Positions 4,246 to 64,000 of a stretch of 64,000 nt of DNA are shown here, in pieces. Both the position numbers and the translations under genes were made by a program. The notes below the pieces were generated by a model. It was not told where the DNA came from. It ran no database searches and was given only the letters and a program-made list of their open reading frames with translations. Source of the DNA: Marinilabiliales bacterium (GTDB taxonomy: Bacteria > Bacteroidota > Bacteroidia > Bacteroidales > F082); NCBI GenBank assembly GCA_002869315.1, contig PKTD01000107.1, forward strand, positions 7,910 through 71,909. The letters run 5' to 3'. Each line of letters opens with the position of its first letter. The stretch's first letter is position 1.

Positions 4246-7161
4246 ATGAAGAGAATTTTATTTTTTTATCTGCTCATAGCACTTGTGTTTATGGGTAGTA
4301 ATGCATTAAATGCACAAGAAACGAAGCAGCCTACACGAGTTTCAAAATCCGTATACATGGATGTTTCAAAAAAACTTAGTGACATAACACCCATTCAACC
4401 AGGATTACGTGAAAGAACATGGAAGAACAAAGAAGTTCCAAATGAATTGGATTATGAAGAAGTACTTGGTACTCCCGGACCTATGATTGGTGATGATCCT
4501 GTTCGCCAAAACAGTATGAAAAATACTACTGACGGAGGAATTATTAATCAGAATTTTTCAGGAGTTGGTAATCTTTCTGGGGTAGCACCTCCTGATACAC
4601 AGGGAGATGTTGGTCCAAACCATTATTTCCAAATGGTAAATAGTGCTTTCGCAATTTGGGATAAAGAAGGAAATTTACTTTACGGACCAGTTGATAATAT
4701 TACATTGTGGGATGGTTTCCCAGGACCTTGGTCAAGTACTAACGATGGTGATCCAGTTGTACTTTATGATGAGTATGCCGACAGATGGATAGCAACACAG
4801 TTTTCATTACCAAACTATCCTTCAGGACCTTTCTACGAATTAGTAGCAGTTTCGCAAACAGGTGATCCAACAGGAGAATGGAACAGATATGCTTTTGAAT
4901 TTAATGAGATGCCTGACTATCCAAAATTTGGTGTTTGGACTGACGGATATTACATGACAACACATAATTTTGCAGGAGGTGGTTTCACAGGAGCCGGATT
5001 AACTGTTTTTGACAGAGATGCAATGATAGCTGGTGAGCCTGTAGCTGATATGGTGGAGTTTAGTGTGGGATCTTCTTACTATGGAGTGTTAGCCGCCGAT
5101 GCTGATGGCCCAACACCGCCACCTGAAGGATCTCCTTCTTACCTTTTAGATATTATTGGTAATAGCGCAATGCGCATTTGGGAGGCTGAATTAGATTGGA
5201 ATATTCCTGATAATTCTGAATTAAGCCTTACCGCTACTTTATCAGTTGAATCTTTTTCAACCAATGGTTTGAATATTAGTCAGCCTGGTACAGGAACATC
5301 ACTTGATGCTCTTACAGGAATGACAATGTACCGTTTGCAATATCGGAATTTTGGGGATTATCAAACACTGGTAACTAACCATACTGTTAATGCAGGTGGC
5401 GGACAAGCCGGAGTGCGTTGGTATGAGTTGAGAAAAACAGATGCTAACTGGGAAATTTATCAACAGGGAACATATGCACCGGATGATGGCGATAACAGAT
5501 GGATGGCCAGTGCTGCAATGAATGGTAATGGTGATATTGCCATTGGATATTCTGTGTCCAGTTCATCAACTTATCCTTATATAAGGTTTGCCGGACAAAC
5601 TGCCGGAGCTCCAATGGGTCTAGGTGTTTTAGATATCGAAGAAACAAGTATATATGAAGGTAATAAATCTCAAACCGGTGTTAGCCGTTGGGGAGATTAT
5701 TCATGTATGACTGTGGATCCAACCAATGATGAGTCATTTTGGTTTACTACTGAATATTCAAACGGTGGATGGAGCTGGAAAACTCAGATCGCTTCATTTG
5801 GTTTTGTTCAGCCTCCTGTAGCCGATTTTAGTGCAGATGAAATATTAATACCTGTGGGAGAAAGTGTTGACTTTTTTGATGAAACTTCAGGTCTTCCTTC
5901 AGAATGGGAATGGACATTTGAGGGTGGTACCCCATCTTCCTCAACAGAGAGAGATCCTAGTGGAATTGTTTTCGACACTGAAGGCTCATTTACAGTTACA
6001 TTAACTGCTACTAATGTTCTGGGAACAGATACTAAAATAAAAGAAGGGTTTATAACTACTTCTTCATCTGTGCTTCCTGAAGTTGATTTTACAGCTGACA
6101 GATCAGAGATTTGTGTTGGCGATACAGTATATTTTACTGACCAAAGTAATTATAGCCCTAATCAATGGGCATGGTCATTTACTCCTGATGATGTTACATT
6201 TATAGAGGGTACTGATGCAAATAGTCAGAATCCGATAGTCGTATTTAATACTTCAGGCTCATTCGATGCTCATCTTCAGGTTTGGAATCTCAATGGTTCT
6301 TCAGAACTTGAGAAAACTGATATTCTTAATGCAGGAGGTCGCTTACCTTATTATAAAGAGACTTTTGAAAATGAAACCTATGCAAGTATTGGCTGGACAG
6401 TAAGTAATCCGGATGATGACGTTACATGGCAACTTTATGAAGTTGGTGGAACAACTCCGGGAATGACTGCAGCCGGTATCGACTTCTCAGATTATTTCGC
6501 GATAGGAGAAAGAGACAGATTAATTTCACCTGCTTTTAACCTTGAGGGTATGAGTAGTGCTGCAATGGGTTTCCAACACGCCTATGCACAGCGTATGGCT
6601 GATGCGGCTGACTCATTGGTAGTTTTAGTTTCTGACGATTGTGGACTTTCATGGACAAGAGTTTTTGCAGATGCCTAAAATGGTACAGGAAACTTTGCCA
6701 CTCATGAAATGACAAGTGAATTTTGGCCAGAAGTTGCTGAAGACTGGTGTATTGCCGGTTGGGGAGCAGGATGTATTGACCTTGATCTAACACCATGGGC
6801 AGGTAGTCCTAATGTTAAGGTTGCTTTTGAATCATATAGTTTCTATGGAAACCCACTTATGATTGATAACTTTACTGTAAGTCAGTATTTGAATACAGAA
6901 GAATCGGAAATTAATAAAGATCTGTTTAAGATTTTCCCAAATCCGGCTTCTACACAGTTTACTGTTCTTCTACCTGATAACTATACTTATTCAGAAGTAA
7001 TACTTATGAATCAGTTGGGTCAGGTTGTTAAAAGAGCCGATGTAGATGGAGTTTCAAATGTTGTAAACATTAGTATTGATCAAAAACTTGAAACAGGATT
7101 GTATTTTGTAAGAGTTATTGGTGCTGGAAAAGAAACTATTCAGAAACTAGTCATAAACTAG
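4246..7161 (+). pseudogene. secreted T9SS cargo protein (N-terminal propeller-like domain, two PKD domains, C-terminal Por sorting domain) interrupted by one in-frame TAA at 6676-6678
   Basis: ORFs 4246-6678 and 6709-7161 are in the same frame, and the 30 nt between them is open. Signal peptide MKRILFFYLLIALVFMGSNALNA|Q. PKD-like repeats (PVADFSADE...TVTLTATN and PEVDFTADR...). The last ~80 aa (FKIFPNPASTQFTVLL...GLYFVRVIGAGKETIQKLVIN) are a typical T9SS C-terminal domain. Confidence 0.75.
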
Positions 7162-7182
7162 TAGAAAGAAAGCGATAAAAAA

Positions 7183-7216
7183 CCCTGACAAACACTAGTT
7201 TTGTCAGGGTTTTTTG
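7183..7216. terminator. bidirectional rho-independent terminator between convergent genes
   Basis: 10-bp perfect stem CCCTGACAAA (7183-7192) / TTTGTCAGGG (7200-7209). Flanked by an A-run upstream and a T-run downstream. Confidence 0.75.
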
Positions 7217-7241
7217 TGTTTAAAATTTTAATAATAAACTC

Positions 7242-8972
7242 TTATTTTACTCTGCTTGCAGTTTTAATTATTTTTTGGTAATCCCTCTTTCCTCCGGCAT
7301 TTATCCTGCAATAATATATACCGGGATTAAGTTCTTTTGCGTTGAATACGATATTGTGTAAACCGCTATTTTGTATTTCATCTTTTAATACGAAAATCAA
7401 TTTACCATAAGTATCAAAAATTGAAATATTAACTTTTTCGGTTTTTTCTAATTCATACCTGATTGTTGTTTCTTCTTTAAATGGATTAGGATAATTTATT
7501 AGATGAAAATCATCTTTAGATGTGATATTTTCTTCTATACCCACATACCATGGAGTTATATGTCCATAATATACATCCTGTTCACCGTTTAGAGTATTAG
7601 CCCAGGCCAGATGTGCTCCATCATTATCGGAAACCATGTCGAAATAGTCGCCCATTTTATCCTGATTTGGATAGCCTTCATTGGGATTGAATAATTCAGA
7701 AAGCTTTTCATTATCTGACCAGGAAACCCCATTGTCAATTGAATATGAATAATATAATGCCGATAGATAAGGATAGGAAACAGCATCTCTTGTATCCAGC
7801 CATACAACATCTATTCTACCGTTTGGTGCCACCGACATAGTTCCAAACCAGGAGTAATTATCGAAACCTTCATCAGTGTTTATCCTCCATGGTTCATCCC
7901 AACTAACTCCTCCATCTGTACTTCTTGTAAACATAACATCAGCAGGATCGTTGAATAGATCTCTGTAAACAGAGGCGCATACATAAACATTAGCTCTTCC
8001 GCTTCCTTCTGAACGGTCAACATCAAACCAAACCTGTCCTACTAAACCCGCCGGATTTACAGCTGCTTGTGAATATACACTACCATCAAGATCTACATCT
8101 GTGTTTAGCATATCCCACATTATAAAACCACCATCTTTAGCATTATCACTTCTGCTAACAACTATGCCACCATTTCCATTGGTTCCGGCCACATATAATT
8201 CTCCATCTGGTCCTGTATTTAAAGTTCCCCAGTATGGGTTTCCCGGTATGTCTACACAGTTTTCATAATTGTCGCCATCATCGGTTGAACGTGTGAAATA
8301 ATTAGGGTAACAATATGAGTAGAATGAAGTCCAGTTTGAATAAATATTGCCGTTTCCAACACTTTCAGTTTTGTCAACTACCATCCATTGCTTATCTCCT
8401 CCCTGGGCAAAAACACCTTGGTCCCATTGCCATCCACTATTATAGCTTCTGTATACATTGCACCAATAATCAAAGTTATCTGTGGTTAAACTATTGTAAT
8501 AAAACACACCTTCATTATTTACACCCAACACAGGATCTGAACGAAATACACCAGGTTCTATCACACCATCAAATACCCAGGTCTCTCCACCATCATTGGT
8601 ATAGGCAACGCCAGCCTGCCTGAAATTACTTGAAACATTATCAAATTGTCTCCATCCTATTATTATATTGTCAGGATTTGATGGATCTACTGCAATGCTT
8701 GGCTCGTTTGCCGCATCGCCTAAAATGTTATTGCCATCCTCATCAACATTCACTTGTGCAGTAAAAAACAAACTGGATCTGCTTTTATAAGCAGGCGATT
8801 TTTTTGGGTTTAGCAATGGCATATATTCATCATCTATCTGCTCATGATGACTATCCCTTTGGTTAATAAATTTATTTTGAGCAAGTAAGGCCGATATGTT
8901 TAGGCTAATGAATAAAAATATTAAGAATGTGCATTTAATAAATGCAAAGAATAATTTTTGACTTAATTCCAT
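7242..8972 (-). CDS. secreted BNR/Asp-box repeat (sialidase-fold) protein with T9SS C-terminal sorting domain
   Basis: Asp-box motifs TNDGGETW, STDGGVSW and SIDNGVSW. Signal peptide ...ISALLA|QNKF. C-terminal LINYPNPFKEETTIRYEL...GIYYCRINAGGKRDYQKIIK is T9SS CTD-like. The ORF track starts at a GTG (8996); I prefer the ATG at 8972. Confidence 0.75.
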   Translation of the reverse strand: MELSQKLFFAFIKCTFLIFLFISLNISALLAQNKFINQRDSHHEQIDDEYMPLLNPKKSPAYKSRSSLFFTAQVNVDEDGNNILGDAANEPSIAVDPSNPDNIIIGWRQFDNVSSNFRQAGVAYTNDGGETWVFDGVIEPGVFRSDPVLGVNNEGVFYYNSLTTDNFDYWCNVYRSYNSGWQWDQGVFAQGGDKQWMVVDKTESVGNGNIYSNWTSFYSYCYPNYFTRSTDDGDNYENCVDIPGNPYWGTLNTGPDGELYVAGTNGNGGIVVSRSDNAKDGGFIMWDMLNTDVDLDGSVYSQAAVNPAGLVGQVWFDVDRSEGSGRANVYVCASVYRDLFNDPADVMFTRSTDGGVSWDEPWRINTDEGFDNYSWFGTMSVAPNGRIDVVWLDTRDAVSYPYLSALYYSYSIDNGVSWSDNEKLSELFNPNEGYPNQDKMGDYFDMVSDNDGAHLAWANTLNGEQDVYYGHITPWYVGIEENITSKDDFHLINYPNPFKEETTIRYELEKTEKVNISIFDTYGKLIFVLKDEIQNSGLHNIVFNAKELNPGIYYCRINAGGKRDYQKIIKTASRVK

Positions 8973-9207
8973 GATTGTTAGTTTTATTGAAGACACAAAA
9001 CTAATTTAAAAAGTTGTCCTAAAATTTATAATTCTAATTTCATATAAATAGAATGATAAATTATTTCCATTTTATACACCTAAATTATTCTTTTGATAAT
9101 AATGCTAATACTGCTGTAATGTGCTCAAATTCATATGAGTAATAATAATGGAATTTTTTATTGTGAAAAAATCACTAAAACACTTGACAAAGTGGGTGGT
9201 TTTTGTA

Positions 9208-9215
9208 TATATTTG
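9208..9215 (+). promoter_or_regulatory. candidate -7 promoter box (TATATTTG) of the marR-fad operon, followed by a 10-bp palindrome ATGCATGCAT (9218-9227)
   Basis: Matches TAnnTTTG. It is the only such box in the 340-nt divergent intergenic region upstream of 9337. Confidence 0.3.
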
Positions 9216-9336
9216 CAATGCATGCATAGTAAATAATTGCTCATTTTGCATAAAGTAAAGAAAAACAAATAGATACAATAGTTTTATTTTACACAAGAAT
9301 TTACACAAGAGTGATAAAAATTAATACCATTCATTA

Positions 9337-9780
9337 ATGAATATACAGGATACAGTAGATTTTCACCTTCGTTCAACCTTATTTGCCACCAAACGTATGT
9401 ACAATGTATTGGCAGCAGAAAATGGAATTACCCAAGGAATTGGATATGTACTTATAAACATAGGTAAGGAAGGAATTCCTGCAACAAAAATTGCACCTAT
9501 AATGGGAATGACCAGCTCAAGTTTAAGTCGACTTCTTAAAAATATGGAAGAGGATGGATTTATTTATCGTAAAAACGACCTTAAGGATAAAAGAGTAGTT
9601 AAGGTTTTTGTAACTGAAAAGGGACTCAAACTAAGAGAGCAGGTAAAAAAGGTTGTGGTGGATTTCAACAAAAGAGTAATGTCGAAAATTACTCCCGAAG
9701 AAATGGAAACCTTTGAGAAAGTAAATGCCTTGATTAGAGAACAGGTGCAGATTGATTTGGATGAGTTTCTTGAAAGATAG
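9337..9780 (+). CDS. MarR family transcriptional regulator
   Basis: 147 aa. Winged-helix segment SSLSRLLKNMEEDGFIYRKNDLKDKRVVKVFVTEKG is typical of MarR. It is the first gene of the beta-oxidation operon. Confidence 0.8.
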   Translation: MNIQDTVDFHLRSTLFATKRMYNVLAAENGITQGIGYVLINIGKEGIPATKIAPIMGMTSSSLSRLLKNMEEDGFIYRKNDLKDKRVVKVFVTEKGLKLREQVKKVVVDFNKRVMSKITPEEMETFEKVNALIREQVQIDLDEFLER

Positions 9781-9806
9781 TTAAAAGGAAATTAAAAACA
9801 TATATA

Positions 9807-13524: not shown

Positions 13525-15309
13525 ATGGACAATAAAAAAGCATTAAAAGGAGGGGAATTCCTTATTCGTGAAACCGAAGCAAAGGATGTATTTATTCCCG
13601 AAGAATTCAACGAAGAACAGCGCATGATGGCGCAAACCTGTAAGGAGTTTACTGAAACTCAGGTGATACCTAATATGGATCAACTTGAAAAGCACGACAG
13701 AGAATTATTATCAAAAATGATGAAAGATGCCGGTGAACTTGGTCTTTTGGGAATTTCCATTCCTGAAGAATATGAAGGTTTTGGACAGAATTTTGTTACC
13801 AGTATGCTTACCACTGAAGAGATGGGTAAAGGTTACAGTTTTGCAGTAGCTTATGCAGCTCATGTTGGAATTGGTACATTACCAATACTTTATTATGGTA
13901 CTGAAGAGCAAAAGCAAAAGTATATTCCTAAACTTGCTACGGGCGAGTATCTGGGAGCATATTGTCTCACTGAAGCTGATGCCGGATCCGACCCTAATTC
14001 AGGTAAAGCAGAAGCTGTTCTCACTGATGATGGCAAACATTATATAGTTAATGGAGTAAAAATATGGATCACCAATGGCGGTGTTGCCGATATATTTATT
14101 GTCTTTGCCAAAATTAAAGGCGATAAAAACCTTAGTGCCTTTATAGTTGAAAAAGGATGGGAAGGTGTTGGTATAGGTGCCGATGAAGAAAAAATGGGTA
14201 TCAAAGGCTCAACAACCATTCAACTGTATCTTGACGATGTAAAGGTTCCTGTAGAAAATCTACTTGGTGAGCAGGATGGAGGATTTAAAATAGCCCTAAA
14301 TATTCTTAACCTTGGTAGAATTAAACTTTCTGCCGCAACTGTAGGAGCAGCAAAAGCTACAATTACGAATTCCTTAAATTATGCCAATGAAAGAAAACAA
14401 TTTGCAAAAAAACTTTCTGATTTTGGTGCAATAAAACATAAACTGTCAGAAATGGCAATTCAGACTTTTGTTTCCGAATCGCTCACATATCGGGCAAGTC
14501 AGAATATTGAAGATGCAATTGCAGGTTATGTAGCAGATGGCATGGAAAAAGGAAAAGCAAGTCTGGAAGGTATTCGCCAGTATGCCATTGAGGCTTCGAT
14601 TGCCAAAGTATTTGGATCAGAAGCCCTCGACTTTGTTGTTTATGAAGGCGTACAAATTTATGGTGGAATGGGATATTCAGCTGAAACTCCGGTTGAAAGA
14701 GCCTATCGCGACAGCAGGATTAACCGGATATTCGAAGGGACTAATGAAATAAACAGAATGCTTTCTGTGGGTGAACTTGTTAAACGCGGACTAAAAGGTG
14801 AACTTGACCTTTTAACTCCTGCTAAAGATGTTGCCAAAGAATTGATGGCAATTCCTGATTTTGGTGCTCCAAGCCCTGAATATTTTGAAGCTAAGCATAA
14901 AATGATAGTCAACTTTAAGAAGTCGATACTAATGGTTGCCGGTGCTGCTCTGCAAAAATATATGCAGGAATTTGCTGATGAACAGGAAATTATAATGAGT
15001 CTAGCCGATATGCTTATGATGACTTATGCTGCCGAATCATTATTGTTGAGAATTGAAAAACTGGATAGTATTTATGATGATGATAAAATGGCGCTCTATA
15101 AAGATATTCTGGATGTATATTTTTACGATACAGCACCAAAAATTCATAAACACGGTTTGGATGCTATTTTCTCATTTGCAGAAGGTGATGAATTAATGGG
15201 AATGCAAATGGGGATGAAACGTTTTACCAAGGTTGCAGGTGTTAATGTAGTTGCAGCAAGAAGAAACATTGCTGACCACCTTGTAGAAGCTAATAAGTAC
15301 AATTTATAG
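13525..15309 (+). CDS. long (594 aa) acyl-CoA dehydrogenase
   Basis: ACAD motifs (YCLTEADAGSD, IFEGTNEINR) plus a C-terminal extension typical of the ~600-aa FadE-type enzymes. Confidence 0.85.
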   Translation: MDNKKALKGGEFLIRETEAKDVFIPEEFNEEQRMMAQTCKEFTETQVIPNMDQLEKHDRELLSKMMKDAGELGLLGISIPEEYEGFGQNFVTSMLTTEEMGKGYSFAVAYAAHVGIGTLPILYYGTEEQKQKYIPKLATGEYLGAYCLTEADAGSDPNSGKAEAVLTDDGKHYIVNGVKIWITNGGVADIFIVFAKIKGDKNLSAFIVEKGWEGVGIGADEEKMGIKGSTTIQLYLDDVKVPVENLLGEQDGGFKIALNILNLGRIKLSAATVGAAKATITNSLNYANERKQFAKKLSDFGAIKHKLSEMAIQTFVSESLTYRASQNIEDAIAGYVADGMEKGKASLEGIRQYAIEASIAKVFGSEALDFVVYEGVQIYGGMGYSAETPVERAYRDSRINRIFEGTNEINRMLSVGELVKRGLKGELDLLTPAKDVAKELMAIPDFGAPSPEYFEAKHKMIVNFKKSILMVAGAALQKYMQEFADEQEIIMSLADMLMMTYAAESLLLRIEKLDSIYDDDKMALYKDILDVYFYDTAPKIHKHGLDAIFSFAEGDELMGMQMGMKRFTKVAGVNVVAARRNIADHLVEANKYNL

Positions 15310-29547: not shown

Positions 29548-30747
29548 TTGCTTGAGAAAAAAGAAACACAATTAAAAAAAGCTAAAGAAACAGCTGTTCT
29601 GGTTGGGATATCATCTAAATCAGAGGGAAGTGAGAAAATACACGAATATCTTGATGAACTGGAGTTTTTAGTAAAAACTGCAGGAGGTAAAACTATGGAG
29701 CGTTTTATACAGTCCTTGGATTTTCCTAATCCTAAAACATATGTGGGCAGTGGTAAACTTCAGGAAATAAAGGAATACATAAAAATTCAAGAAATTGAAC
29801 TTGTAGTTTTTGATGATGAATTAAGCCCTTCTCAGTTAAGAAATGTTGAGAAAGAATTGGAATGTAAAATTTTAGATCGCACAAATTTAATATTAGACAT
29901 ATTTGCTAAAAGGGCTCAAACATCACATGCTAAAGTGCAGGTAGAATTAGCGCAATATCAATACTTATTACCTCGCCTAACCAGAATGTGGACTCACCTC
30001 GAGCGTCAAAAAGGAGGAATAGGATTACGCGGTCCGGGAGAAACGGAAATTGAAACTGACCGCCGTATAATCCGCGATAAAATCAGCCTTCTTAAAAAGC
30101 GACTTACTCAAATAGACAAGCAAATGTCTACCCAGCGTAAAAATCGTGGGGAACTAATTAGAGTTGCATTAGTTTGATATACAAATGTTGGAAAATCTAC
30201 AATTATGAACCTTCTTAGTAAATCGGAAGTGTTTGCAGAAAATAAGTTATTTGCAACACTCGATACTACTGTACGAAAGGTAGTAATTGATAACTTACCT
30301 TTTCTGCTTTCTGATACTGTTGGGTTTATACGGAAACTTCCTCACGGACTTGTAGAGTCATTCAAGTCGACACTTGACGAAGTAAGAGAATCAGATATTT
30401 TAGTTCACGTTGTGGATATTTCTCATCCTGAATTTGAAGATCATATTGCTACTGTTACACAAACTCTTTCTGAAATTGGAGCTGCCGATAAAAAAGTAAT
30501 AATGGTCTTCAACAAAGTAGATGCATATACCTGGGAGGAAAAAGAGGATGACGACTTAACTCCTACAACTAAAGATAACATTAGTTTAGAAGAACTAAAA
30601 AATACATGGATGGCAAAGGAAAATAATCCTTGCATCTTTATCTCTGCTATTACAAAAGAAAATTATCATGAGTTTCGTAAACTATTATATGATAATATAA
30701 AAGAAATTCATGCCATTAGATATCCATATAATAATTTTCTCTATTAA
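29548..30747 (+). pseudogene. hflX: GTPase HflX interrupted by one in-frame TGA at 30175-30177
   Basis: ORFs 29548-30177 and 30205-30747 share a frame. Across the stop the translation reads RVALV*YTNVGKST, against the conserved HflX sequence VALVGYTNAGKST. The N-terminal part has GPGETEIETDRR. The C-terminal part has G3 DTVGF and G4 NKVD. TTG start. Confidence 0.85.
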
Positions 30748-34956: not shown

Positions 34957-36495
34957 TTAAAGCGGAATATTACCATGTTTTTTTGGTGGATTGCTATCCG
35001 ATTTATTATCAGTCATTTCCAATGCCTGATTTAATTTCTTTCTGGTATTATGAGGGAATATAATTTCATCAATATAGCCTAGTTCAGCAGCTTTATAAGG
35101 ACTGGCAAAGTTATTCCTGTAATCAGAAACGGCTTTTGCCCTTTCCTCTTCATTATTTAGTTTATTTCTGTAAATAATATTAACTGCTCCTTCAGGTCCC
35201 ATAACTGCAATTTAAGCAGTGGGATAAGCAAAGTTGTAGTCTGCACCAATATGCTTGCTCGACATTACATCGTATGCACCACAATAGGCTTTACGGGTAA
35301 TTACAGTAATTTTTGGAACTGTGGCTTCAGCGAATGCGTATAATAATTTTGCACCATGTTTGATTATTCCGCCAAATTCCTGCGCAGTACCAGGTAAAAA
35401 TCCTGGAACATCCTCAAAAGTTATTAATGGGATATTGAAGGCATCACAGAATCTCACAAAACGAGCTGCTTTTGTGGAACTGTCGATATCTAATACTCCT
35501 GCTAATACTGCCGGCTGATTAGCAACTATACCAACTGGTTTTCCTCCAATGCGTGCAAAACCAACTATAATATTTTTAGCGTAATGTGGTTGAACCTCCA
35601 GAAAGTGCTTATTATCCACAACAGGAAGTATAATTTCCATCATGTCGTATGGTTTGTTTGGATCCGTAGGTATAATATTATCCAAGGCAGGTTCTTCTCT
35701 CGACATATCGTCGATACATTCTTTTCTTGGTGGATCTTCCAGATTATTGGAAGGAAGGAAACTCATTAATTCCCTTATCATCATCATTGCCTGTTCGTCA
35801 TCATCAGCTGTAAAATGTGCAACACCTGACTTTTGATTATGAGTCATTGCACCTCCCAGGTCTTCCATGGTTACTTCTTCATTTGTAACAGTTTTAATAA
35901 CATCAGGTCCTGTTACAAACATATAAGATGTATCTTTTACCATCATAATGAAATCAGTAATTGCAGGAGAATAAACAGCTCCACCTGCACATGGACCTAA
36001 AATGGCCGATATTTGAGGGATAACTCCTGAACTTCTTACGTTACGGTAAAATATATCAGCATATCCTGCGAGACTTTCTACGCCCTCCTGAATTCTGGCA
36101 CCACCCGAATCATTAAGTCCTATTACAGGTGCTCCCATTTTCATTGCAAGATCCATTATTTTTACAATCTTATCTGCATTTGATCTGCTTAGTGAACCAC
36201 CTAGTACGGTAAAATCCTGAGCAAACGCATACATAAGTCTGCCATCGATTTTTCCATATCCGGTAACAACACCATCTCCTAGGACTTTGTTTTTGTCCAT
36301 ACCAAAATTAGTATTACGATGTGTAACAAACTTATCGATTTCTACAAATGTATCCTTATCGAATAAATGTTTAATACGCTCTCTGGCAGTTTTTCTTCCT
36401 GCTTTATGCTGTTTATCGATTCGCTCCTGGCCACCGCCAAGTTCTGCTAGTTTATGCTTTTCTTCGAGTTCCTGTATTTTTGGTCTTAATGACAT
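34957..36495 (-). pseudogene. acyl-CoA carboxylase carboxyltransferase subunit (propionyl-CoA carboxylase beta / methylmalonyl-CoA decarboxylase alpha type) interrupted by one in-frame TAA at 35212-35214
   Basis: ORFs 35212-36495 and 34957-35202 share a frame. The junction reads AYPTA*IAVMGPEGAV, against the conserved PTAEIAVMG. It ends with the canonical KHGNIPL. It also carries KAYCGAY where the family has KAYGGAY (TGT at 35281-35283). Confidence 0.85.
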
Positions 36496-44966: not shown

Positions 44967-45166
44967 AAATTCTTATTTATTAATTATGGAAAATAATTTT
45001 ACTGTATAAAAACAGTTGCTAACTAAGAATTATGTAAAGGATTGGGTTCGGTTTTTAAGTTACTTATAATCAAGAGTAAAGATTTACCCCATTTGAAATT
45101 TGTTTCTTCGGGTTTGTGTATAGTTATATAATCAAATAAGAATAATTTATAAATATTAAAATCAAA

Positions 45167-45499
45167 TTATTCAAAAAAAAAATCATAAACAGGCTTTACC
45201 TTAGTAATTTGCTTGTTTAGGTCAAATATAACCGAAAGTTTAAAATTTTGTTCTGTGGTATTGCAACAGTCAGTGTCTTCACAATGTGTAACTCCTGGAT
45301 TTGTTTGCATAGCACAACATGCATTTTTATTAGGCATTTCATCGCCCTTATGACAATTGTCGGCCATTTCCTGGAAAATGCTACTGTCATTTAAACCCGA
45401 TTTTTTGCAGAAATGTGAATACACTTTAAATCCGCTCATCGACAATATCATTATGAAAATGAGAAAAAAAGACGTTATATTTCGTATTAAAACCCGCAT
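45167..45499 (-). CDS. small membrane-anchored Cys/His-rich protein (resembles the Bacteroidota HYC_CC_PP-type proteins found next to TonB receptors)
   Basis: About 110 aa from the ATG at 45499. One TM helix, then SHFCKK, NCHKGDE, ACCAMQ and HCEDTDCCNT. Confidence 0.5.
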   Translation of the reverse strand: MRVLIRNITSFFLIFIMILSMSGFKVYSHFCKKSGLNDSSIFQEMADNCHKGDEMPNKNACCAMQTNPGVTHCEDTDCCNTTEQNFKLSVIFDLNKQITKVKPVYDFFFE

Positions 45500-45653
45500 A
45501 ATTATCAAAGTGTAAAATTACATAACTGTTGTATTGATAATGTTAATTAATTGTTAAAATCATAATTAATAGTTGTATTTATAAATTAAGCTAAATTCAG
45601 AACATACTATGTTATTTTAAGTTTAAGTCAATAAATTGTACCATTAATTTTAT

Positions 45654-49570: not shown

Positions 49571-49743
49571 ATTATTGTTTTTTTGTAAAGATATAAAAAC
49601 CAATAAAATTTAATATTGACGCATAAAATCCACAAACTTATAAATTAGGTTTCTGAAGTTACAGTTACATATTTTTAAAAATATTTTCCTGATTGCGACC
49701 CTTTAGTATTTGTATTGTCATTATATTGCATGAAAGCTTAAAA

Positions 49744-50298
49744 GTGGCAGTAAAGCAATACGACATACATAAGAATTTAATTGTAGAAAGTGTAAAGGGA
49801 AATCGTAAATCCCAATACAAGCTTTATGAACTCTATTCAGGAGCAATGTTTAATATCTGCTACCGAATGATGAATAGCAGGGAAGAGGCAGAAGATTTAC
49901 TACAAGAAGCTTTTACTGAGGCCTTTTTGAAGATGCATACATTTCGTTTCGAATCCAGTTTTGGAGCCTGGATAAAAAGAATAGTTGTAAACAAATGTAT
50001 TAATGAAATTAAAAGAAGAAAAGCCGATTTGGAATTTTGTGAAGATATAGGAAAGTTTGGTGAAAAAGAAGATATCGATGATAAAATACCGGGATTAAGT
50101 GTTGAGAATATAAAGAATGCAATGAAGGAATTACCCAATGGTAGCAAAGTTATTTTCCAACTTTATTTACTTGAAGGTTATGATCACAAAGAAATATCAC
50201 AAATACTCGGTGTAAGTGAGTCGAACTCAAAATCTCAATATATGAGAGCGAAAAGAAGAATTAGAGAAATTTTAAAAGATAAAGTATATGAAATCTGA
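49744..50298 (+). CDS. ECF-type RNA polymerase sigma-70 factor
   Basis: Region 2 (EDLLQEAFTEAF...WIKRIVVNKCIN) and region 4 (GYDHKEISQILGVSESNSKSQYMRAKRRI). No in-frame ATG near the 5' end. The start is GTG 49744 or TTG 49726, and this remains uncertain. The TGA stop overlaps the next ATG (ATGAAATCTGA). Confidence 0.75.
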   Translation: MAVKQYDIHKNLIVESVKGNRKSQYKLYELYSGAMFNICYRMMNSREEAEDLLQEAFTEAFLKMHTFRFESSFGAWIKRIVVNKCINEIKRRKADLEFCEDIGKFGEKEDIDDKIPGLSVENIKNAMKELPNGSKVIFQLYLLEGYDHKEISQILGVSESNSKSQYMRAKRRIREILKDKVYEI

Positions 50299-50851
50299 TA
50301 AGCTTGAGCAATTTGTACTTGATAACCGTGATGGTTTTGATGATTTAAAACCATCCGAAAATCTATGGGCTAAGATAGAGCAGGATTTACCAGCAGTTAA
50401 GGAGAAAAAATTATCCATAACAACAGTGTTGATGCGTGTTGCTGCAGTAGTTGTAATATTTATTTCATCATATTTTTTCCATGATTTTATGAATAATAAT
50501 GGTGAGAATAAACAACAGGCCAATATTCCTCAAAGTGAATCATTTAAAACCCTGGTTGAAGCAAAAATGTATTACTCATCGGAGATACAATTTAAAAAGC
50601 AGGAATTATTTCAACTTACTATTAATACCCCTGAAATTCAAAAAAGTATAAACGCTGAACTCGAAGAACTCGACAATTTATTTGTTCAGTTGAAAGAGGA
50701 TTTGGGTGATCAGGCAAACAATGATGAGGTTATAGAAGCAATGATACAGAATTACAGAATTAAACTTGAAATTCTAAATCAAATGCTTCAACAAATAAAG
50801 ACTAAAAACAGAAAAAATAATAATCATGAAGAAATTCATCATACATTATAA
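50288..50851 (+). CDS. putative anti-sigma factor (single-pass membrane protein)
   Basis: 187 aa, translationally coupled to the sigma gene. TM helix ITTVLMRVAAVVVIFISSYFF and a coiled-coil-like C-terminal region. Confidence 0.55.
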   Translation: MKSDKLEQFVLDNRDGFDDLKPSENLWAKIEQDLPAVKEKKLSITTVLMRVAAVVVIFISSYFFHDFMNNNGENKQQANIPQSESFKTLVEAKMYYSSEIQFKKQELFQLTINTPEIQKSINAELEELDNLFVQLKEDLGDQANNDEVIEAMIQNYRIKLEILNQMLQQIKTKNRKNNNHEEIHHTL

Positions 50852-51932
50852 GGTCATTTGTTTTGTGTTGCTGCTCCTGCAGCTTGATATAAACGCACAA
50901 ACTTTTGAAAAGAGCAGAAGTGTGAGTAAAACATTCTTTGCTGGTCCTGATACTGAATTACAAGTGACCAACAAATATGGTGATATTCAACTTGTTGAAT
51001 GGGATAATGATTCCGTAAAGTTTGATATTAGTTTGAAGGTAATGTCAACTAAAGAATCAAAATTGAATAATACTTTCGATTTTATCGATTTTGAATTTAA
51101 TGCTACTCCTCATTATATAATAGTTAAAACTACTTTTGAGGGCGGCGGATCTTTCTGGTCTGATATTAAGGACTTAGCCAGCACTGTTTTTACCAGTGGT
51201 ACCAAGTCGCAAATAGATTATAAAATCTATCTGCCAAAAGATATGAAAGTAAATTTGGAGAATAAATTTGGGAATATTTTTATTTCCGACCATAGTGGCG
51301 ATCTTAATATAAACCTTTCAAATGGAGATTTAAACACTCACAATCTGGATGGAGAAAACACAGTTAATTTAAGTTTTGCCAATGCAAATATTAATAAATA
51401 TGAAAGTGGTCTTATTGCAATAGGGTATTTTTCAGAAGTTCATATTACAGAATGTAATACTTTAAAAGTTGATAGCAAATCCTCAAAAGTTTATATTAAA
51501 AAGTTTGAAACGCTGGATATTCAATCCAATAGAGATCATATGTACCTGGGTGAAGGAAATAATATTGATGGTAAATTGATGTTTACATTTGTTAATATTG
51601 AAAAAATAAATAAAAAATTAAGTATAGAAACTAATTATGGAGATTTTGAACTTGACAATTTAGGTAAGATGGAAAATGGAATTTCCATATCTTCAGAAAG
51701 TACCGACTTTACTATAACAAAAACCAAATCCCAAAGTTTTAATCTGGATATAACATATAATGAAAATGCTGGTTTATTTTATGACCAAGAGTTAAAGAAT
51801 AAAGTAAGTAAAGCAGTGGAGAACGATAATAAACTGGTTCAAACAACTGGTTTATTGGGCGATACAAATGCATACCCTATAAACTTTAAAGCAAAGTTAT
51901 TATCCGGAAGTTTAAAAATTAATAATAAATAA
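50826..51932 (+). CDS. secreted DUF4097-like repeat protein (putative adhesin fold)
   Basis: 368 aa. Signal peptide ...LQLDINA|QTF. Beta-helix-like repeats (FGNIFISDHSGDLNINLSNGDLN). Overlaps the anti-sigma gene by 26 nt. Confidence 0.5.
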   Translation: MKKFIIHYKVICFVLLLLQLDINAQTFEKSRSVSKTFFAGPDTELQVTNKYGDIQLVEWDNDSVKFDISLKVMSTKESKLNNTFDFIDFEFNATPHYIIVKTTFEGGGSFWSDIKDLASTVFTSGTKSQIDYKIYLPKDMKVNLENKFGNIFISDHSGDLNINLSNGDLNTHNLDGENTVNLSFANANINKYESGLIAIGYFSEVHITECNTLKVDSKSSKVYIKKFETLDIQSNRDHMYLGEGNNIDGKLMFTFVNIEKINKKLSIETNYGDFELDNLGKMENGISISSESTDFTITKTKSQSFNLDITYNENAGLFYDQELKNKVSKAVENDNKLVQTTGLLGDTNAYPINFKAKLLSGSLKINNK

Positions 51933-52053
51933 GTAGGATTAATTGTAACTATTAGTGAATTAATCTGTCAATATAAATAGTTAAATAAAATGCTGTAATA
52001 AATAAGCGCGCAACCATTAATAGCAAAATTTAAATCACATAATAATAGAGAAA

Positions 52054-52824
52054 ATGAAAATAAAAAATATAGTTATAATAGGATTCATCCTTATGCTGTC
52101 CACCACATATTATTCGTGCAGCAAATTGAATTCAGTAAATGGAAATGGCCATGTTCTTACTGAAGAAAGAAGGCTTGTAAACTTTGATCAGGTAAAAAAT
52201 GAAGGAGAGTTTAATGTATTCATTTCTTACGATACAGTTTATCAGGCGATAGTAGAGGCCGAAACAAATCTGATTCCTTATATCAGGACTATTGTTAACG
52301 GAAATACTTTAATTATCGATAGTAGAGAAAATTTGCGTCCTGGAATGTCAATAAATATTTATGTAAAAACCCCAAATGTAAAATATATAGAATTGAGCGG
52401 CTCGGGTACAATTTTTTGTGATTCGGTAAGTGGAGATAATGTTGGCTCAGTAATTAGTGGCTCAGGTAGTATAGAAGCCAATTTATACGGCGCTGTATCC
52501 GAACTTGATATAAGTTGATCAGGAAATATGTTGCTAAATATAGAATCATTAATGACCTATTGCGATATCAGTGGTTCTGGAGATATTTATGTATCTGGTT
52601 CTTCTACTGAAGGCGATTTTAAAATCAGCGGATCAGGTAATATTAATTCATACGATTTATATCAGGAAAAACTGGATGCTAAAATTAGTGGATCAGGAAA
52701 TATGTACGTTAATGTTTCAGATATTTTAAATGCAAAAATTAGTGGCAGTGGATCTGTTTATTATATTGGAAATCCACTTTTAGATGTTAATATAACAGGT
52801 TCTGGTTCAGTAATTAAACATTAA
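52054..52824 (+). pseudogene. lipoprotein with DUF2807/GIN (autotransporter-head-like) repeats, interrupted by one in-frame TGA at 52516-52518
   Basis: ORFs 52054-52518 and 52528-52824 share a frame. The junction reads ELDIS*SGNM, whereas the protein repeats ISGSGD, ISGSGN (twice) and ISGSGS (twice). Lipobox-like TTYYSC. Confidence 0.7.
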
Positions 52825-54852: not shown

Positions 54853-55809
54853 ATGAAGAATAGTATCTGTGAATTGTTTCAAATAAAATACCCAATTGTA
54901 CAGGGAGGTATGATTTGGTGTAGCGGATGGGAACTGGCATCAGCGGTCAGTAATGCTGGGGGTTTGGGGCTTATTGGCAGTGGTAGTATGTATCCCGAAA
55001 TTTTTGAAGAACACGTCTTAAAATGCAAAAAAGCAACTGATAAACCTTTCGGTGTTAATGTCCCTTTGCTATATCCACAAACTGATGAAATTGTTGAGAT
55101 AATAGTAAAACACGGGATAAAAATTGTTTTCACTTCTGCAGGAAATCCTGCAAAATATACTTCTTATCTCAAGGATAAAGGCATAACTGTAGTGCATGTT
55201 GTAGCCAATAAAAAGTTTGCATCAAAAGCTCAGGCAGCGGGCGTTGATGCTATTGTTGCTGAGGGTTTTGAAGCCGGAGGACATAATGGTATTGAAGAAA
55301 CAACTACCATGGTACTGATACCTATGCTAAAACAAGAAATAGATATTCCAATTATTGCTGCAGGAGGGATTGCCTCAGGGAGTTCGATATTTGCCGCTTT
55401 GGCATTAGGAGCAGAAGGAGTCCAAATAGGTAGTTTGTTTGCTTCATCAGTGGAATCTTCAGCCCATGAAAATTTTAAAAATAAAATTATTTCTGCTGGC
55501 GATGGAAGTACAAAACTTACATTAAAAAGTGTTGTTCCTGTTCGTTTGATTAAGAATGATTTTTTTAATGAAGTAGCACAAGCTGAGAGTAAAGGTGCTT
55601 CTAGAGAAGAACTTATTAGCCTGCTTGGCAAGGGTCGTTCAAAACTTTGAATGTATGAAGGCGATACTTCTAAAGGGGAATTGGAAATTGGACAGGTTTC
55701 ATCAATGATAAAGGATGTACTGCCTGTTAGTGAAATCTTTACTAATCTTATTGAAGAGTATAAACAAACAAAAAATAAAATGCAGATAAACTTGGATTTA
55801 TTTGGATAA
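54853..55809 (+). pseudogene. NAD(P)H-dependent flavin oxidoreductase (nitronate monooxygenase / FabK-like enoyl-ACP reductase II) interrupted by one in-frame TGA at 55648-55650
   Basis: ORF 54853-55650 continues in frame as MYEGDTSKGELEIGQVSSMIKDVLPVSEIFTNLIEEYK... to the TAA at 55807-55809. This 52-aa tail is below the ORF-track cutoff. The junction GKGRSKL*MYEGD corresponds to the family pattern GRxKKGMFEGD. Motifs PIVQGGM and AGGGIASG. Confidence 0.8.
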
Positions 55810-57934: not shown

Positions 57935-57967
57935 TTTCAAATATTTTAAAATTTAAAAAAGATAATC

Positions 57968-58930
57968 ATGTCGATATTAGTATATACAGAAAACTGGGAT
58001 GGCAAATTCAAGAAACTAAGCTTTGAACTGGTTTCGTATGCTGCTGCCATAGCTAAAGAAATGGGACAGGAATTAACTGCCCTGTCAATTGGTAATGTTG
58101 CCGATGACGAATTAAATAAATTAGGAAATTACGGTGCTTCTAAAGTTTTAAAAGTAGAAGATGACAGGTTTAACAGCCTCGATAATAAAGCCTTGTCAAA
58201 AGCAGTTGTAGCTGCCGCTGAAAGTGTCGGGGCCAAATTAGTGGTGTTTGCACATAATAATCTTGGAAAAGCATTAGCACCAAGAGTTTCAGTAAAACTA
58301 AACGCAGGTTTGGTATCTGGAGTAACTGCTCTGCCTTCTTCCACAACTCCTTTTGTGGTGAAGAAAAAAGTATTTACAGGTAAGGCTTTTGCGAATGTTC
58401 AGGTTGATGCTGAGAATGTAGTATTAACATTTGCTCAAAACTCATACGAACTCGTGGAAACCGGTGGAAATGCAACTGTAGAGGCTTTTGACCCTCAGGT
58501 TGCTGATGGTGATTTTAGCACTACAGTTAATGAAACCAATAAAATTACTGGAAAGGTACTTCTCAACGATGCTGAAATTGTTGTTTCAGGTGGTAGAGGT
58601 ATGAAGAGTGGTGATAATTGGGGCGGACTTGAAGAGTTGGCTGACCTTCTAAATGCTGGTATGGCTTGTTCACGCCCGGTATCCGACGAAGGTTGGAGAT
58701 CACATGATGAGCATGTAGGCCAAACAGGTAAGATAATTGCTCCTAACTTATACTTTGCATTTGGTATTTCAGGTGCCATACAACATTTAGGTGGTGTTAG
58801 TTCCTCAAAAGTAATTGTTGCTATCAACAAAGATCCTGAGGCTCCAATTTTTGAAGCTGCCGATTATGGTGTGGTAGGCGATGTATTTAAAGTGATTCCT
58901 CAATTAATAGAAGGAGTGAAGGAAATGTAA
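57968..58930 (+). CDS. etfA: electron transfer flavoprotein alpha subunit
   Basis: 320 aa. FAD-binding C-terminal motif FGISGAIQHLGGVSSSKVIVAINKDPEAPIF. Confidence 0.9.
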   Translation: MSILVYTENWDGKFKKLSFELVSYAAAIAKEMGQELTALSIGNVADDELNKLGNYGASKVLKVEDDRFNSLDNKALSKAVVAAAESVGAKLVVFAHNNLGKALAPRVSVKLNAGLVSGVTALPSSTTPFVVKKKVFTGKAFANVQVDAENVVLTFAQNSYELVETGGNATVEAFDPQVADGDFSTTVNETNKITGKVLLNDAEIVVSGGRGMKSGDNWGGLEELADLLNAGMACSRPVSDEGWRSHDEHVGQTGKIIAPNLYFAFGISGAIQHLGGVSSSKVIVAINKDPEAPIFEAADYGVVGDVFKVIPQLIEGVKEM

Positions 58931-58965
58931 AAAGTACATTTTCACAAAAAAATTAACGAATAAAT

Positions 58966-58999
58966 AATCCCGTTTGGATTCTCCGAGCGGGATTTTTTT
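58966..58999 (+). terminator. rho-independent terminator after etfA
   Basis: Stem ATCCCG (58967-58972) / CGGGAT (58988-58993), then a T7 run. Confidence 0.6.
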
Positions 59000-59041
59000 A
59001 ATTGACAATTGACAATGTATAATTTTTAATTGTTAACTATA

Positions 59042-59196
59042 CGTTCGACAGTCATTTCAATCGAGGAGGAACGACGAGAGTGAAATCTCCTTAAAATACA
59101 TCATTTACTTCATCACTATAGGAGATTTCTCCTCATGTCTTTCATTTCATTGCAGACAATAATCGATATGACAGTAATATGCTGATAAACAGTCAT
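59042..59196. repeat. pair of inverted ~50-55-nt intergenic elements with shared termini (GGAGATTTC ... TCGAT..ATGACwGT), plus a third ATGACTGT terminus abutting the helicase stop codon
   Basis: Copy A lies on the minus strand at 59042-59090 and copy B on the plus strand at 59121-59175. The 9-bp inverted termini are GAAATCTCC (59082-59090) and GGAGATTTC (59121-59129). ATGACwGT occurs at 59048-59055 (reverse complement), 59168-59175 and 59189-59196 (reverse complement). Confidence 0.5.
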
Positions 59197-61655: not shown

Positions 61656-61727
61656 AATAAGAAGTTTTTAGTTTTGGTCAAAGATAATAAATCCTGAGGT
61701 GTTTTAGGAATTAAGAATTATAAAGAC

Positions 61728-62717
61728 TTACTCATTGTAGACCACAGTACTTACTACATGTCCTACCATTTTTAAAGTGTTTTTGTCAATTTTATCCATG
61801 GTATCACCACTGGTATGCCAATGTTCAAAAAAGGAACCATTCCCGGATTTTTTGTCTACATGAATGATATCAATAGAAGGTATATTTGCATATTTATTTA
61901 CCCATACATGATCATCAGTGAGAGGGTAACCCTGTCGATTTAAAAAGTAAGCCCCATAACCCAATTCTCCTGCATAACTCCATACCATATCCATCACAAA
62001 GCCGGCATACATTTCTGAAAACTGCTCTCTCAGGAATTGTGGATCTTTTGCTCCAACCATATCCAATAAAATTCCATATCTTGCTGTATAACCCATTTTA
62101 TGTGGATTTTTACTCCAATATTGTGAACCCAGACCCCAGTTTTCATCCTCATATATTTGCTTGTCGGATGGTGGACCCCAATCTTCAAGATCAAACAAAA
62201 CGATGTCTATTCCAATATCCGGCTTTTGATTTTGGAACATTCTTGCCATTTCCAGTAAAATGCCAACACCACTGGCACCATCATTGGCACCGTCTATGGG
62301 CTGATTATGCTTAGTTTCATCTTCATCATGATCGGCAAATGGCCTTGAATCCCAATGTGCCATTAATAAAACTCTGTTGGTGTAGGAAGGATTAAAGGAG
62401 GCAATAATATTTTTTCCATTACGGGTTACCTTATCATATGTTCTTGCTTTAAAAGCTTGTACAATAACAGTATCGGAATATTGATTTAACTTTTCAACCA
62501 GCCAATTAGCACATTCTTTATGTTCTTGTGTTCCAGGAACACGCGGACCAAAATCAACTTGTTTTTTTACAAAAAAATATGCTGAATCAGCATTGAATTC
62601 TGGAATGTTAACCAATTTTCTTTCCTTTTCCTTATTGTTTTTTGTGCTTTTGTTACCACCTCCGCATGATACTAGTATCATTGGGATAATTACAAAAAAT
62701 GCAAATATTTTTTTCAT
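61728..62717 (-). CDS. M28-family lipoprotein, glutaminyl-peptide cyclotransferase-like
   Basis: 329 aa. Lipobox ILVSCGG. Metal and active-site region MAHWDSRPFAD and GANDGASGVGILLEMAR...DLEDWG resemble animal-type glutaminyl cyclases, as in Porphyromonas. Confidence 0.7.
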   Translation of the reverse strand: MKKIFAFFVIIPMILVSCGGGNKSTKNNKEKERKLVNIPEFNADSAYFFVKKQVDFGPRVPGTQEHKECANWLVEKLNQYSDTVIVQAFKARTYDKVTRNGKNIIASFNPSYTNRVLLMAHWDSRPFADHDEDETKHNQPIDGANDGASGVGILLEMARMFQNQKPDIGIDIVLFDLEDWGPPSDKQIYEDENWGLGSQYWSKNPHKMGYTARYGILLDMVGAKDPQFLREQFSEMYAGFVMDMVWSYAGELGYGAYFLNRQGYPLTDDHVWVNKYANIPSIDIIHVDKKSGNGSFFEHWHTSGDTMDKIDKNTLKMVGHVVSTVVYNE

Positions 62718-62742
62718 CAGAATTTGTATTAAACTTTTGAAT

Positions 62743-63309
62743 TTAATTCAGCAATAGGCTGTCAATATTCTTTCTAATACGTTCTGCCTTTTCAGAATCA
62801 AGCATATCTTCAGGTAGTTCTTCAGGATTACCATAATAACCTATGGCAATAACTGAAACTACCGTATACTCATCGCTAATATTAAAAATTTCTGCTGCTT
62901 TTTTTGCATCAAAACCGGTCATCTGATGTCCGTACAAACCCTGATTAACAGTTTCTAAACTCATAAATGCTACAGCCTGCCCCAAATCATATTCATTGGT
63001 AGCATTTGGTTTATTATTGCGACTGAAATTATTTTTAGTAATATTTAGTATCAATACTCCTGCATTGCCCGCCCATTTCTGATTCCACTCAACTAATGTT
63101 GAAAGTATTTTATCATAGTTGCTATCACCTTTTTTACCTACAATAAATCTCCATGGTTGTTCATTAAAAGCAGAAGGAGCCCATCTTGCGGCCTCTAAAA
63201 TGCTATTTAATTTCTCATCTTCTACTTCCTTCGGACTATATGCTCTGTTACTCCACCTTTGCTCTATTAGTTTATTGACAGGGGAATTGTTTTTAGCCTT
63301 TTTAATCAT
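62743..63309 (-). CDS. nitroreductase family protein
   Basis: About 188 aa from the ATG at 63309 (the track start at 63345 is an extension). RWSNRAY and EQPWRFIV motifs. Confidence 0.8.
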   Translation of the reverse strand: MIKKAKNNSPVNKLIEQRWSNRAYSPKEVEDEKLNSILEAARWAPSAFNEQPWRFIVGKKGDSNYDKILSTLVEWNQKWAGNAGVLILNITKNNFSRNNKPNATNEYDLGQAVAFMSLETVNQGLYGHQMTGFDAKKAAEIFNISDEYTVVSVIAIGYYGNPEELPEDMLDSEKAERIRKNIDSLLLN

Positions 63310-63400
63310 ACAAACATTTTTTGCAAAATTAATCATAAATGGCAAAAGAGAATTCTTTAAGGCCGTGATAATCAGAAATTATGAAAATTTAACCAATAAT

Positions 63401-64000
63401 CTAAAAAATCATAGTGAAAGCAGCACCTTCGTCTTGCTTGGATCTGACACTTATGCTACCTTTATGCATCTGCATAATCTGTCGAGACAAACTCAACCCT
63501 ATGCCCGAACCAGTTTGTTTGGAAGTAAAAAATGGCATAAATATTTTATCCATTATATCGGGTTTTATGCCTTTTCAATTATCACTAATTTCTATGGTCA
63601 CCCTATTATTGAGGTTTACTGAAGCGGTAATGCTTATTTCAGGATTTTCAGAACCTTTAACGGCATCAATGGCATTTAGAAGCAGATTGATAATCACCTG
63701 ATCTATCAAATCGGGGTCGGCAAGTATTTTTAATTCGGAAGGTAATATTTTAGATTTTACTTTTACATTACACTCTTTTACATTTTTTGACAATAGTTCC
63801 AAGGCTCTGTCTATCATTTCTTTAACCTCAAAATATCTAAAGGTTGGTTTTGGAATTCGAGTAAGGTTTCTGTAAATCTCCACGAAATTCAGCAGACCTT
63901 TACTTCTCTTTTCGATGGTGTTTATGGCATGAGCTACATCATCCAGACTTTCTATATCTTCTTTTTTGCGTGGCGGATTGTTCTCACGAGTGTCCTGAAT
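63401..64000 (-). pseudogene. sensor histidine kinase (C-terminal catalytic part; 5' end off the right edge) interrupted by one in-frame TGA at 63575-63577
   Basis: The frame is open from 64000 down to the TAG at 63401-63403, apart from the TGA. The junction reads VTIEISDN*KGIKPD, against the invariant G1 box DNGxGI. Downstream are an F box (IFMPFFTSK) and a G2 box (GSGIGLSLSRQI). Confidence 0.8.

Follow-up and report, generated by a model that had tools for sequence, protein, structure and literature searches.

The 64,000-nucleotide stretch of DNA analyzed here, which we call the window, belongs to a 98,177-bp contig (PKTD01000107.1) of a metagenome-assembled genome (MAG) of a Marinilabiliales bacterium, and several of its genes are interrupted by a single in-frame stop codon. 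An earlier note, made from the letters of the window only, had reported six such genes and had proposed that in each of them the stop replaced a G-initial glycine or glutamate codon. We show here that these six stops, which can be traced to their origin, go back to G:C→T:A substitutions of very recent date, each at a guanine prone to oxidation (the 5' member of GG or GA). The genes are broken as written under the standard genetic code and are not read through. The substitutions are derived, bear no mark of selective filtering and vary among assemblies that represent a single population sampled in a single enrichment project. The stops are the product of DNA damage or mutation and not of an altered genetic code. 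As to whether the changes arose in the data or in living cells, we lean slightly towards a data artefact. The finding is of a kind already known, namely the G:C→T:A signature of oxidized guanine, here in a public MAG.

In-frame stops and their ancestral codons

The source contig carries the locus tags C0598_ and the proteins PLX12799-PLX12842. The MAG probably originates from perchlorate-reducing marine enrichments, and PMC6797604 links the Marinilabiliales MAGs whose accessions begin with PLW or PLX to marine perchlorate-reducing enrichments from the 2018 study by Barnum et al. The same source describes perchlorate, chlorate and oxygen reductases as missing from the Marinilabiliales MAGs of those enrichments. 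Our own gene list for the window comprises 48 genes, with TAA (30 genes), TAG (12) and TGA (4) as terminators.

We used exact-protein look-ups to retrieve contigs that are nearly identical (~99.8%) to the window. These contigs came from JGI sample 3300007102 (L001, L002, L166, L167 and L168), from ENA assembly ERZ794999 (L003 and L085) and, in the case of the short contig L004, from a third ENA assembly, ERZ23491051; jointly they span 34.9 kb of the window. The outgroup, or next species, was the closest species representative, GCA_041554435.1, whose contig JBFFLX010000005.1 is collinear with the window at a DNA identity of ~78-85%. A scan of genomes showed that the source of the window is not among the GTDB species representatives, and that the nearest species has 78% DNA identity. 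All corresponding genes covered by the outgroup are intact there, and the kinase site described below lies outside its coverage. The JGI sample includes a 58,801-bp contig of the same size as that recorded for a protein of a sibling MAG, both the species of the window and the sibling species are present in ERZ794999, and the three sources (MAG, JGI and ENA) appear to be one project and not independent environments. Stops common to two assemblies can therefore reflect shared reads.

Translation through each of the six reported sites bore out the earlier note, since every gene has a single in-frame stop after which the frame carries on. A systematic comparison with the open reading frames of the outgroup recovered the same six and added a seventh, so that 7 of the 48 genes in the window (~15%) are broken. 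The stops are as follows, an asterisk marking the stop in its protein context:

4246-7161, plus strand: type IX secretion system (T9SS) cargo gene; TAA at 6676..6678, context FADA*NGTG
29548-30747, plus strand: hflX; TGA at 30175..30177, at the G1/Walker-A glycine, context VALV*YTNVGKS
34957-36495, minus strand: carboxyltransferase gene; TAA at 35212..35214, context YPTA*IAVMG
45023-45508, minus strand: small hypothetical gene; TAA at 45167..45169 (the seventh stop)
52054-52824, plus strand: DUF2807/GIN lipoprotein gene; TGA at 52516..52518, in an ISGSG repeat, context LDIS*SGN
54853-55806, plus strand: NMO/FabK-like oxidoreductase gene; TGA at 55648..55650, context RSKL*MYEGD
63404 to beyond the window end, minus strand: histidine kinase gene; TGA at 63575..63577, at the G1-box glycine (DNGxGI), context ISDN*KGI

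The claim that the downstream parts still encode family motifs also held, as the pieces after the stops match the Por_Secre_tail, Carboxyl_trans, DUF2807 and HATPase_c profiles and HflX, once repaired, is recognized by all three of its domain profiles. The TAA at 6676 cuts the T9SS cargo gene into products of 810 and 150 aa; these two fragments have been deposited as separate proteins, and the N-terminal fragment of the GIN lipoprotein has likewise been deposited. The hflX and carboxyltransferase genes are without a protein record and the protein accession numbering skips both, so NCBI evidently treats them as pseudogenes. Exact look-ups found no record of the repaired GIN, FabK and HflX proteins or of the HflX and carboxyltransferase fragments of this MAG.

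The seventh stop, at 45167, had been missed by the earlier note, whose rule that the stops fall on G-initial Gly or Glu codons is thus shown for six of the seven. The 47 codons that follow this TAA still align with the C-terminus of the outgroup protein (WGKSLLLIISNLKTEPNPL versus WGKKLLVIINNLKTDPNPL). Its position is not conserved, with Thr, Tyr or Leu in relatives, and the ancestral codon cannot be inferred.

The ancestral state of the other six sites was read from the near-identical contigs, from the outgroup and from homologues. The hflX site is GGA in the near-identical ENA contig L085 and in the outgroup, the carboxyltransferase site is GAA in the outgroup and in JGI contig L001, where the 512-aa gene is intact, and the kinase site is GGA in JGI contig L167. 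The T9SS and FabK stops are present in the JGI contigs as well: L168 has the same TAA although 19 other sites differ from the window, and L166 has the same TGA although 8 other sites differ. Here the outgroup has GAA and GGA, respectively, and at the GIN site it has GGT (Gly). The comparison of orthologues that the earlier note had recommended therefore gives sense codons in the outgroup at all five of the six stop sites within its coverage. Among the homologues scored, Gly occupies the stop position in 120/120 for hflX, 119/119 for GIN and 119/119 for FabK, in agreement with the earlier placement of the TGAs on conserved glycines, and Glu occupies the T9SS position in 9/9 orthologues of 86-91% identity. 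The sole exceptions to Gly or Glu at any site were a few carboxyltransferase paralogues with Lys. Taken together, the codons of the near-identical contigs and outgroup and the residues of the homologues show that at all six sites the first base of the codon changed from an ancestral G to T; the inferred GGA→TGA and GAA→TAA changes are thus shown directly or by a close outgroup at every site.

A near-identical copy of the GIN gene was not found in the collections searched, nor were intact near-identical copies of the T9SS and FabK genes, whose best intact relatives have 91% and 81% identity. The HflX homologue search gave, among the matches listed, full-length relatives of at most 91% identity. 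A metagenome scan with the protein encoded between the GIN and FabK genes found relatives of at most 77% identity, which we used for conservation only.

The wider class of G:C→T:A substitutions

We calculated how often such a pattern is expected with the codon usage of the window. Under uniform single-base change, coding-strand G>T accounts for 22% of stop-creating changes, and the probability that all six of six stops are of this type is 1.2e-4 (6e-5 if transitions are weighted twofold). The argument that arbitrary single-base changes are unlikely to have produced the stops is therefore sound. If only G:C→T:A changes are allowed, nonsense makes up 12.5% of coding changes and 74% of the nonsense paths are coding-strand G>T (GAA 40%, GGA 22% and GAG 12%), which raises the probability of six out of six to 0.16. 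The rule that the stop always falls on a G-initial Gly or Glu codon, although present at the six sites, is consequently not a separate regularity but what codon usage yields under a G:C→T:A process. Other assemblies have C→A stops at Ser codons (TCG/TCA), and the Ser→stop changes of the JGI contigs are the minority path expected of such a process.

These figures bear on the possibility that the stops are ordinary, independent pseudogenes that decayed one by one, with G→T dominant only because the genome is AT-biased. The stops in the T9SS cargo and FabK-like genes, being present in both assemblies, could be older genuine inactivations, and the hflX and carboxyltransferase genes are, as noted, evidently handled by NCBI as pseudogenes. 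However, six out of six G>T is hard to obtain in this way, each gene has a single lesion with its downstream domains intact, and three of the stops are missing from contigs of 99.8% identity. We found no indels between the window and the near-identical contigs over the 34.9 kb compared, which agrees with the absence of frameshifts reported earlier. In addition, the same class of change also strikes invariant residues as missense. We regard independent decay as improbable.

The missense changes were found by comparing the window with the near-identical contigs over the same 34.9 kb. The differences are distributed as follows:

All differences: 74
Transitions: 36 in total, 8 non-synonymous, 24 synonymous
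G↔T/C↔A: 30 in total, 16 non-synonymous, 9 synonymous
Other transversions: 8 in total, 2 non-synonymous, 5 synonymous

The G↔T/C↔A class is significantly richer in non-synonymous changes than the transitions are (Fisher p = 0.006). Transitions look like ordinary strain variation, and by our own count they polarize near-evenly (12 window-derived and 16 contig-derived). For the G↔T/C↔A class, polarization at base level gave 9 window-derived G:C→T:A changes against 2 T:A→G:C changes. Across the three assemblies G:C→T:A explains 9/9 polarizable stops, that is the six of the window, the JGI mutase TCG→TAG, the JGI kinase TAA at a Ser position and an ENA GAA→TAA. Apart from the stops, the window-derived events are:

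35283, minus strand: GGT→TGT, Gly405Cys in the carboxyltransferase, on the same strand as its TAA and 69 bp from it; GGT in L001, GGC in the outgroup
34228, minus strand: GAT→TAT, Asp215Tyr in the CorA gene; GAT in L001 and the outgroup
2022, minus strand: GAT→TAT, D→Y in the MeaB-fused mutase gene; G in L168 and the outgroup
2032, minus strand: AGG→AGT, R→S in the MeaB-fused mutase gene; G in L168 and the outgroup
14641, plus strand: GAT→TAT, Asp→Tyr in the acyl-CoA dehydrogenase gene 13525-15309; GAT in L002 and the outgroup
28417 and 28428, plus strand: two intergenic G→T changes upstream of trpS; G in L085 and the outgroup

The missense changes are radical and fall on positions conserved in the outgroup (D→Y three times, G→C and R→S), and the change at 35283 confirms the GGT→TGT at an invariant Gly that had been noticed earlier. 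The mutase (385-3756, minus strand) is an 1123-aa protein in which B12-binding, MeaB and MM_CoA_mutase domains are fused in an IcmF-like architecture, and its gene adjoins genes of acyl-CoA metabolism.

Changes of the same class are private to the other assemblies:

JGI L168, 5419-5421 (window 925-927, minus strand): stop, Ser TCG→TAG in the mutase, context TPTEE*VRRA; the gene is intact in the window
JGI L167, 2974-2976, about 28 codons past the window end: stop, TAA in the kinase H-box, context EIE*WQKLIRVLTHEI
JGI, 31736: missense, GGT→TGT
ENA L003, window position 8969: stop, GAA in the window but TAA here, in codon 10 of gene 7242-8996 (Por_Secre_tail)

At the H-box site of L167 a related MAG has Ser TCG. 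The ENA contigs also have private missense changes (Asp→Glu, Leu→Ile and Asn→Lys), and in L003 and L085 the private transversions of this class, four in all, are without exception C→A when read on the plus strand. A further irregularity was seen in JGI contig L002, whose bases 1-64, at the place of window positions 8842-8905, resemble neither the window nor any other locus that was fetched; either a structural variant or a misassembly at the contig end, inside the 5' end of the gene 7242-8996, could account for it.

The six stops and the seven non-stop changes give 13 window-derived events for the analysis of context. The mutated G is followed by a 3' purine in 13/13 events (GA 7 and GG 6) against a background of 53.8% (p = 3e-4), and the non-stop events alone show the same (7/7, p = 0.013). 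None of the 13 events is in CGG, a context that makes up 3% of G sites in the background, so that the test is weak at these numbers. We estimate that, under such a G-purine preference at codon position 1, about one hit in two would create a stop, which accounts for a ratio of stops to missense changes of roughly 1:1.

Window-derived G→T changes also occur in same-strand pairs, at 2022/2032 (10 bp), 28417/28428 (11 bp) and 35214/35283 (69 bp). By hand calculation, 13 events scattered over 35 kb should yield ~0.05 pairs at a spacing of 11 bp or less, compared with the two seen. The coding strand carries the G>T in all 11 window-derived coding events. A transcription-related (sense-strand) asymmetry was considered and rejected, because 64% of GR contexts and ~81% of GR stop paths are already on the coding strand; over all assemblies the sense:antisense ratio is 13:5 against ~64-70% expected, and by our own count the other assemblies tend in the direction opposite to the window.

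A test of the whole window against the outgroup gave no significant asymmetry (69 non-synonymous G>T versus 57 T>G, p = 0.33), any such signal being swamped by ordinary divergence. Two further candidates for broken genes were discarded. An in-frame TAG in the lnt gene of the outgroup is an alignment artefact, and truncations of the FabK protein (298 aa) and of a sigma factor (142 aa) in the sibling species reflect start-codon calls and not stops.

Genetic code and read-through

Sparse recoding or suppression, with UGA read as Gly, UAA read as Glu and the genes still functional, would also account for intact frames beyond the stops. All four TGAs coincide with invariant Gly positions, and GGA→TGA is somewhat over-represented (4/6 against ~30% expected; our own binomial, p ~0.07). 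Nevertheless, plain GGA or GAA stands at three of the stop sites in contigs of 99.8% identity, and the outgroup has sense codons wherever it covers the sites. The stops found over the assemblies include TGA, TAA and TAG and stand in for Gly, Glu or Ser, a combination that no single code fits. TAA is the main terminator (30/46 genes) and TGA terminates four genes, as had been stated before; in the sigma-factor gene the terminal TGA is kept in the next species, with a second stop directly after it. The window contains no tRNA gene. For practical purposes recoding is effectively excluded, and we give it almost no chance; the earlier rejection of it is upheld by the sense codons of the near-identical contigs, the involvement of three stop codons and the TGA terminators.

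The known system closest to such a reading is genetic code 25, in which Gracilibacteria/SR1 use UGA for Gly. The window resembles it in having in-frame TGA at conserved Gly positions. It differs in that TGA is used as a terminator, in that TAA and TAG are also affected, in its host, which belongs to the Bacteroidota, and in that the TGAs are not kept even among sequences of 99.8% identity. Selenocysteine insertion or programmed read-through was likewise rejected, since homologues have Gly, and not Cys or Sec, at all four TGA sites; no search for selenocysteine insertion sequence (SECIS) elements was made.

Damage in the data or mutation in the cells

The two live explanations are indeed those that the earlier note had set beside recoding, an artefact of the 8-oxoguanine (8-oxoG) type and a real G:C→T:A mutator. 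To the first, namely that most of the substitutions do not come from the ordinary evolution of a viable lineage, we give a chance a little short of even. In the proposed mechanism, guanine-oxidation lesions (8-oxoG read as T) would have been carried by a few of the DNA molecules that served as template and would have reached the consensus because effective template depth was low, owing to a low-input or amplified library or to thin coverage. A few-template library of this kind would reconcile consensus-level calls with a damage-level density, and the changes would then be a data artefact of the MAG and its sister assemblies.

Several observations are in line with such damage. Each assembly carries a different private set of G→T changes. 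Their density shows a rough trend, on small numbers, to fall as more reads are pooled: 4.3 kb of ENA single-run contigs, with a k-mer coverage of 2.5-2.6, hold 4 private C→A events, the MAG has ~11 private G→T per 35 kb by our own estimate, and the JGI combined assembly has 4-7 private events in ~31 kb by our own count. A load of 7/48 broken genes is implausible for a viable clone. Same-strand pairs as close as those seen suggest damage to single molecules, and the 3'-purine context fits the chemistry of guanine oxidation.

The alternative is that the G→T changes are genuine alleles of cellular origin, which the Marinilabiliales population of the enrichments accumulated as G:C→T:A mutations of the 8-oxoG type. 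We consider this a serious contender, though we would sooner doubt it than accept it. Its cause would be a loss of MutY/MutM-type repair (a mutator) or exposure to the reactive chlorine and oxygen species of neighboring perchlorate reducers, and the enrichments would be dominated by different sub-clones. The T9SS and FabK hits would then be older and shared, while the hits in hflX, the carboxyltransferase and the kinase (MAG) and in the mutase and kinase (JGI) would be newer and private. In its most specific form, a fermentative bystander of perchlorate reducers would be under massive guanine-oxidation mutagenesis, caused by reactive chlorine and oxygen species or by its own lack of 8-oxoG repair. 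This would leave a MUTYH-like signature (5' G of GG/GA, Glu→stop, Asp→Tyr) and sub-clones which have nonsense in about one of every seven genes and are still common enough to be assembled. We hold this possible but doubtful.

What speaks for real alleles for the most part also weighs against damage in the data. A contig of 98 kb normally implies a coverage at which random read errors lose the consensus. The T9SS and FabK stops are common to two assemblies that differ at 8-19 other sites, and shared and private stop alleles nest across the assemblies. Contig L001 of JGI breaks exactly at variant 30294, a C/A variant (Asn/Lys in hflX, window versus L085), and starts one base after it, as if the assembly graph had been left with a bubble in which each allele had good support. 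The absence of CGG among the 13 events is unlike the low-fraction CCG>CAG shearing artefact (PMC3616734), whereas the MUTYH/8-oxoG signature formed in vivo in MUTYH-deficient mice (PMC10904009) is matched both in sequence context (5' G of GG or GA) and in the amino-acid changes (E→stop, D→Y and L→I). The library bottleneck on which the artefact depends is an assumption, and the source, perchlorate-reducing enrichments, suits the in-vivo cause.

An origin in cells has to contend with the extreme load, ~15% of the window genes broken and ~3e-4 private G→T events per bp. By our extrapolation to the genome, this comes to over 1,000 mutations, with nonsense alleles numbering 100-300; such a load is hard to reach within the lifetime of an enrichment and hard to survive. 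The haplotypes differ by ~0.1%, mostly in synonymous transitions, so that they must have diverged long before the enrichment, and such a divergence sits badly with recent nonsense alleles that are shared. Mutations that occur independently over generations should not fall into same-strand pairs with a spacing of 10-11 bp, and the transcription-strand asymmetry, as described above, disappears once context and ascertainment are allowed for. None of mutY, mutM and mutT is found within the window.

PMC10904009 describes KBrO3-treated Mutyh-/- mice and the in-vivo 8-oxoG signature of MutY/MUTYH deficiency (COSMIC SBS18/SBS36). The changes in the window resemble it in being G:C→T:A only, in the preference for the 5' G of GG and GAA, in the lead of E→stop followed by D→Y and L→I, and in the high share of nonsense and non-synonymous changes. 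They differ in being the consensus of a bacterial MAG and not clonal tumors as in the mouse study, in a density far above the level of a viable lineage and in the presence of close same-strand pairs. PMC3616734 (Costello et al. 2013) describes guanine oxidation during acoustic shearing as the source of the OxoG library-preparation artefact, which is marked by a low allelic fraction, a CCG>CAG context and read-orientation bias. The likeness lies in the restriction to C>A/G>T, produced by 8-oxoG:A pairing in amplification, and in the lack of any relation to gene function or selection; the differences are that the changes here are at consensus level and that 0/13 are in CGG.

Hypermutator lineages are also familiar from the laboratory, for example the mutT/mutY mutators in long-term lines of Escherichia coli. 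They share with the window the dominance of one transversion class and an abundance of coding changes that escaped selection, in a population kept in the laboratory. However, they need thousands of generations for such loads and are not known to have nonsense in ~15% of their genes.

The substitutions affect what can be read from this MAG and probably from others of the same libraries, since in the window G→T changes in the consensus break ~15% of the genes and alter invariant residues. If such sites are left uncorrected, gene content and metabolism will be inferred wrongly, for example as [quoted passage not shown]. A cheap diagnostic is a joint pattern of stops that trace to G-initial Glu or Gly codons, of conserved sites altered by D→Y and G→C, and of a purine 3' to the changed base; it flags oxidized-guanine damage rather than a different genetic code. 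Should the alleles prove to be biological, they would represent a striking oxidative hypermutation in a member of chlorine-oxyanion-reducing cultures; were this true, it would be a case of environment-driven hypermutation in a natural community, with consequences for the reading of pseudogene-rich MAGs.

Upstream of the DUF2807/GIN gene, within 49693-52824, the sigma-factor gene whose terminal TGA was discussed above (49693-50298, extracytoplasmic function (ECF) type) and the next two genes (50288-50851 and 50826-51932) form a run of overlapping genes, after which comes the DUF2807/GIN gene itself.

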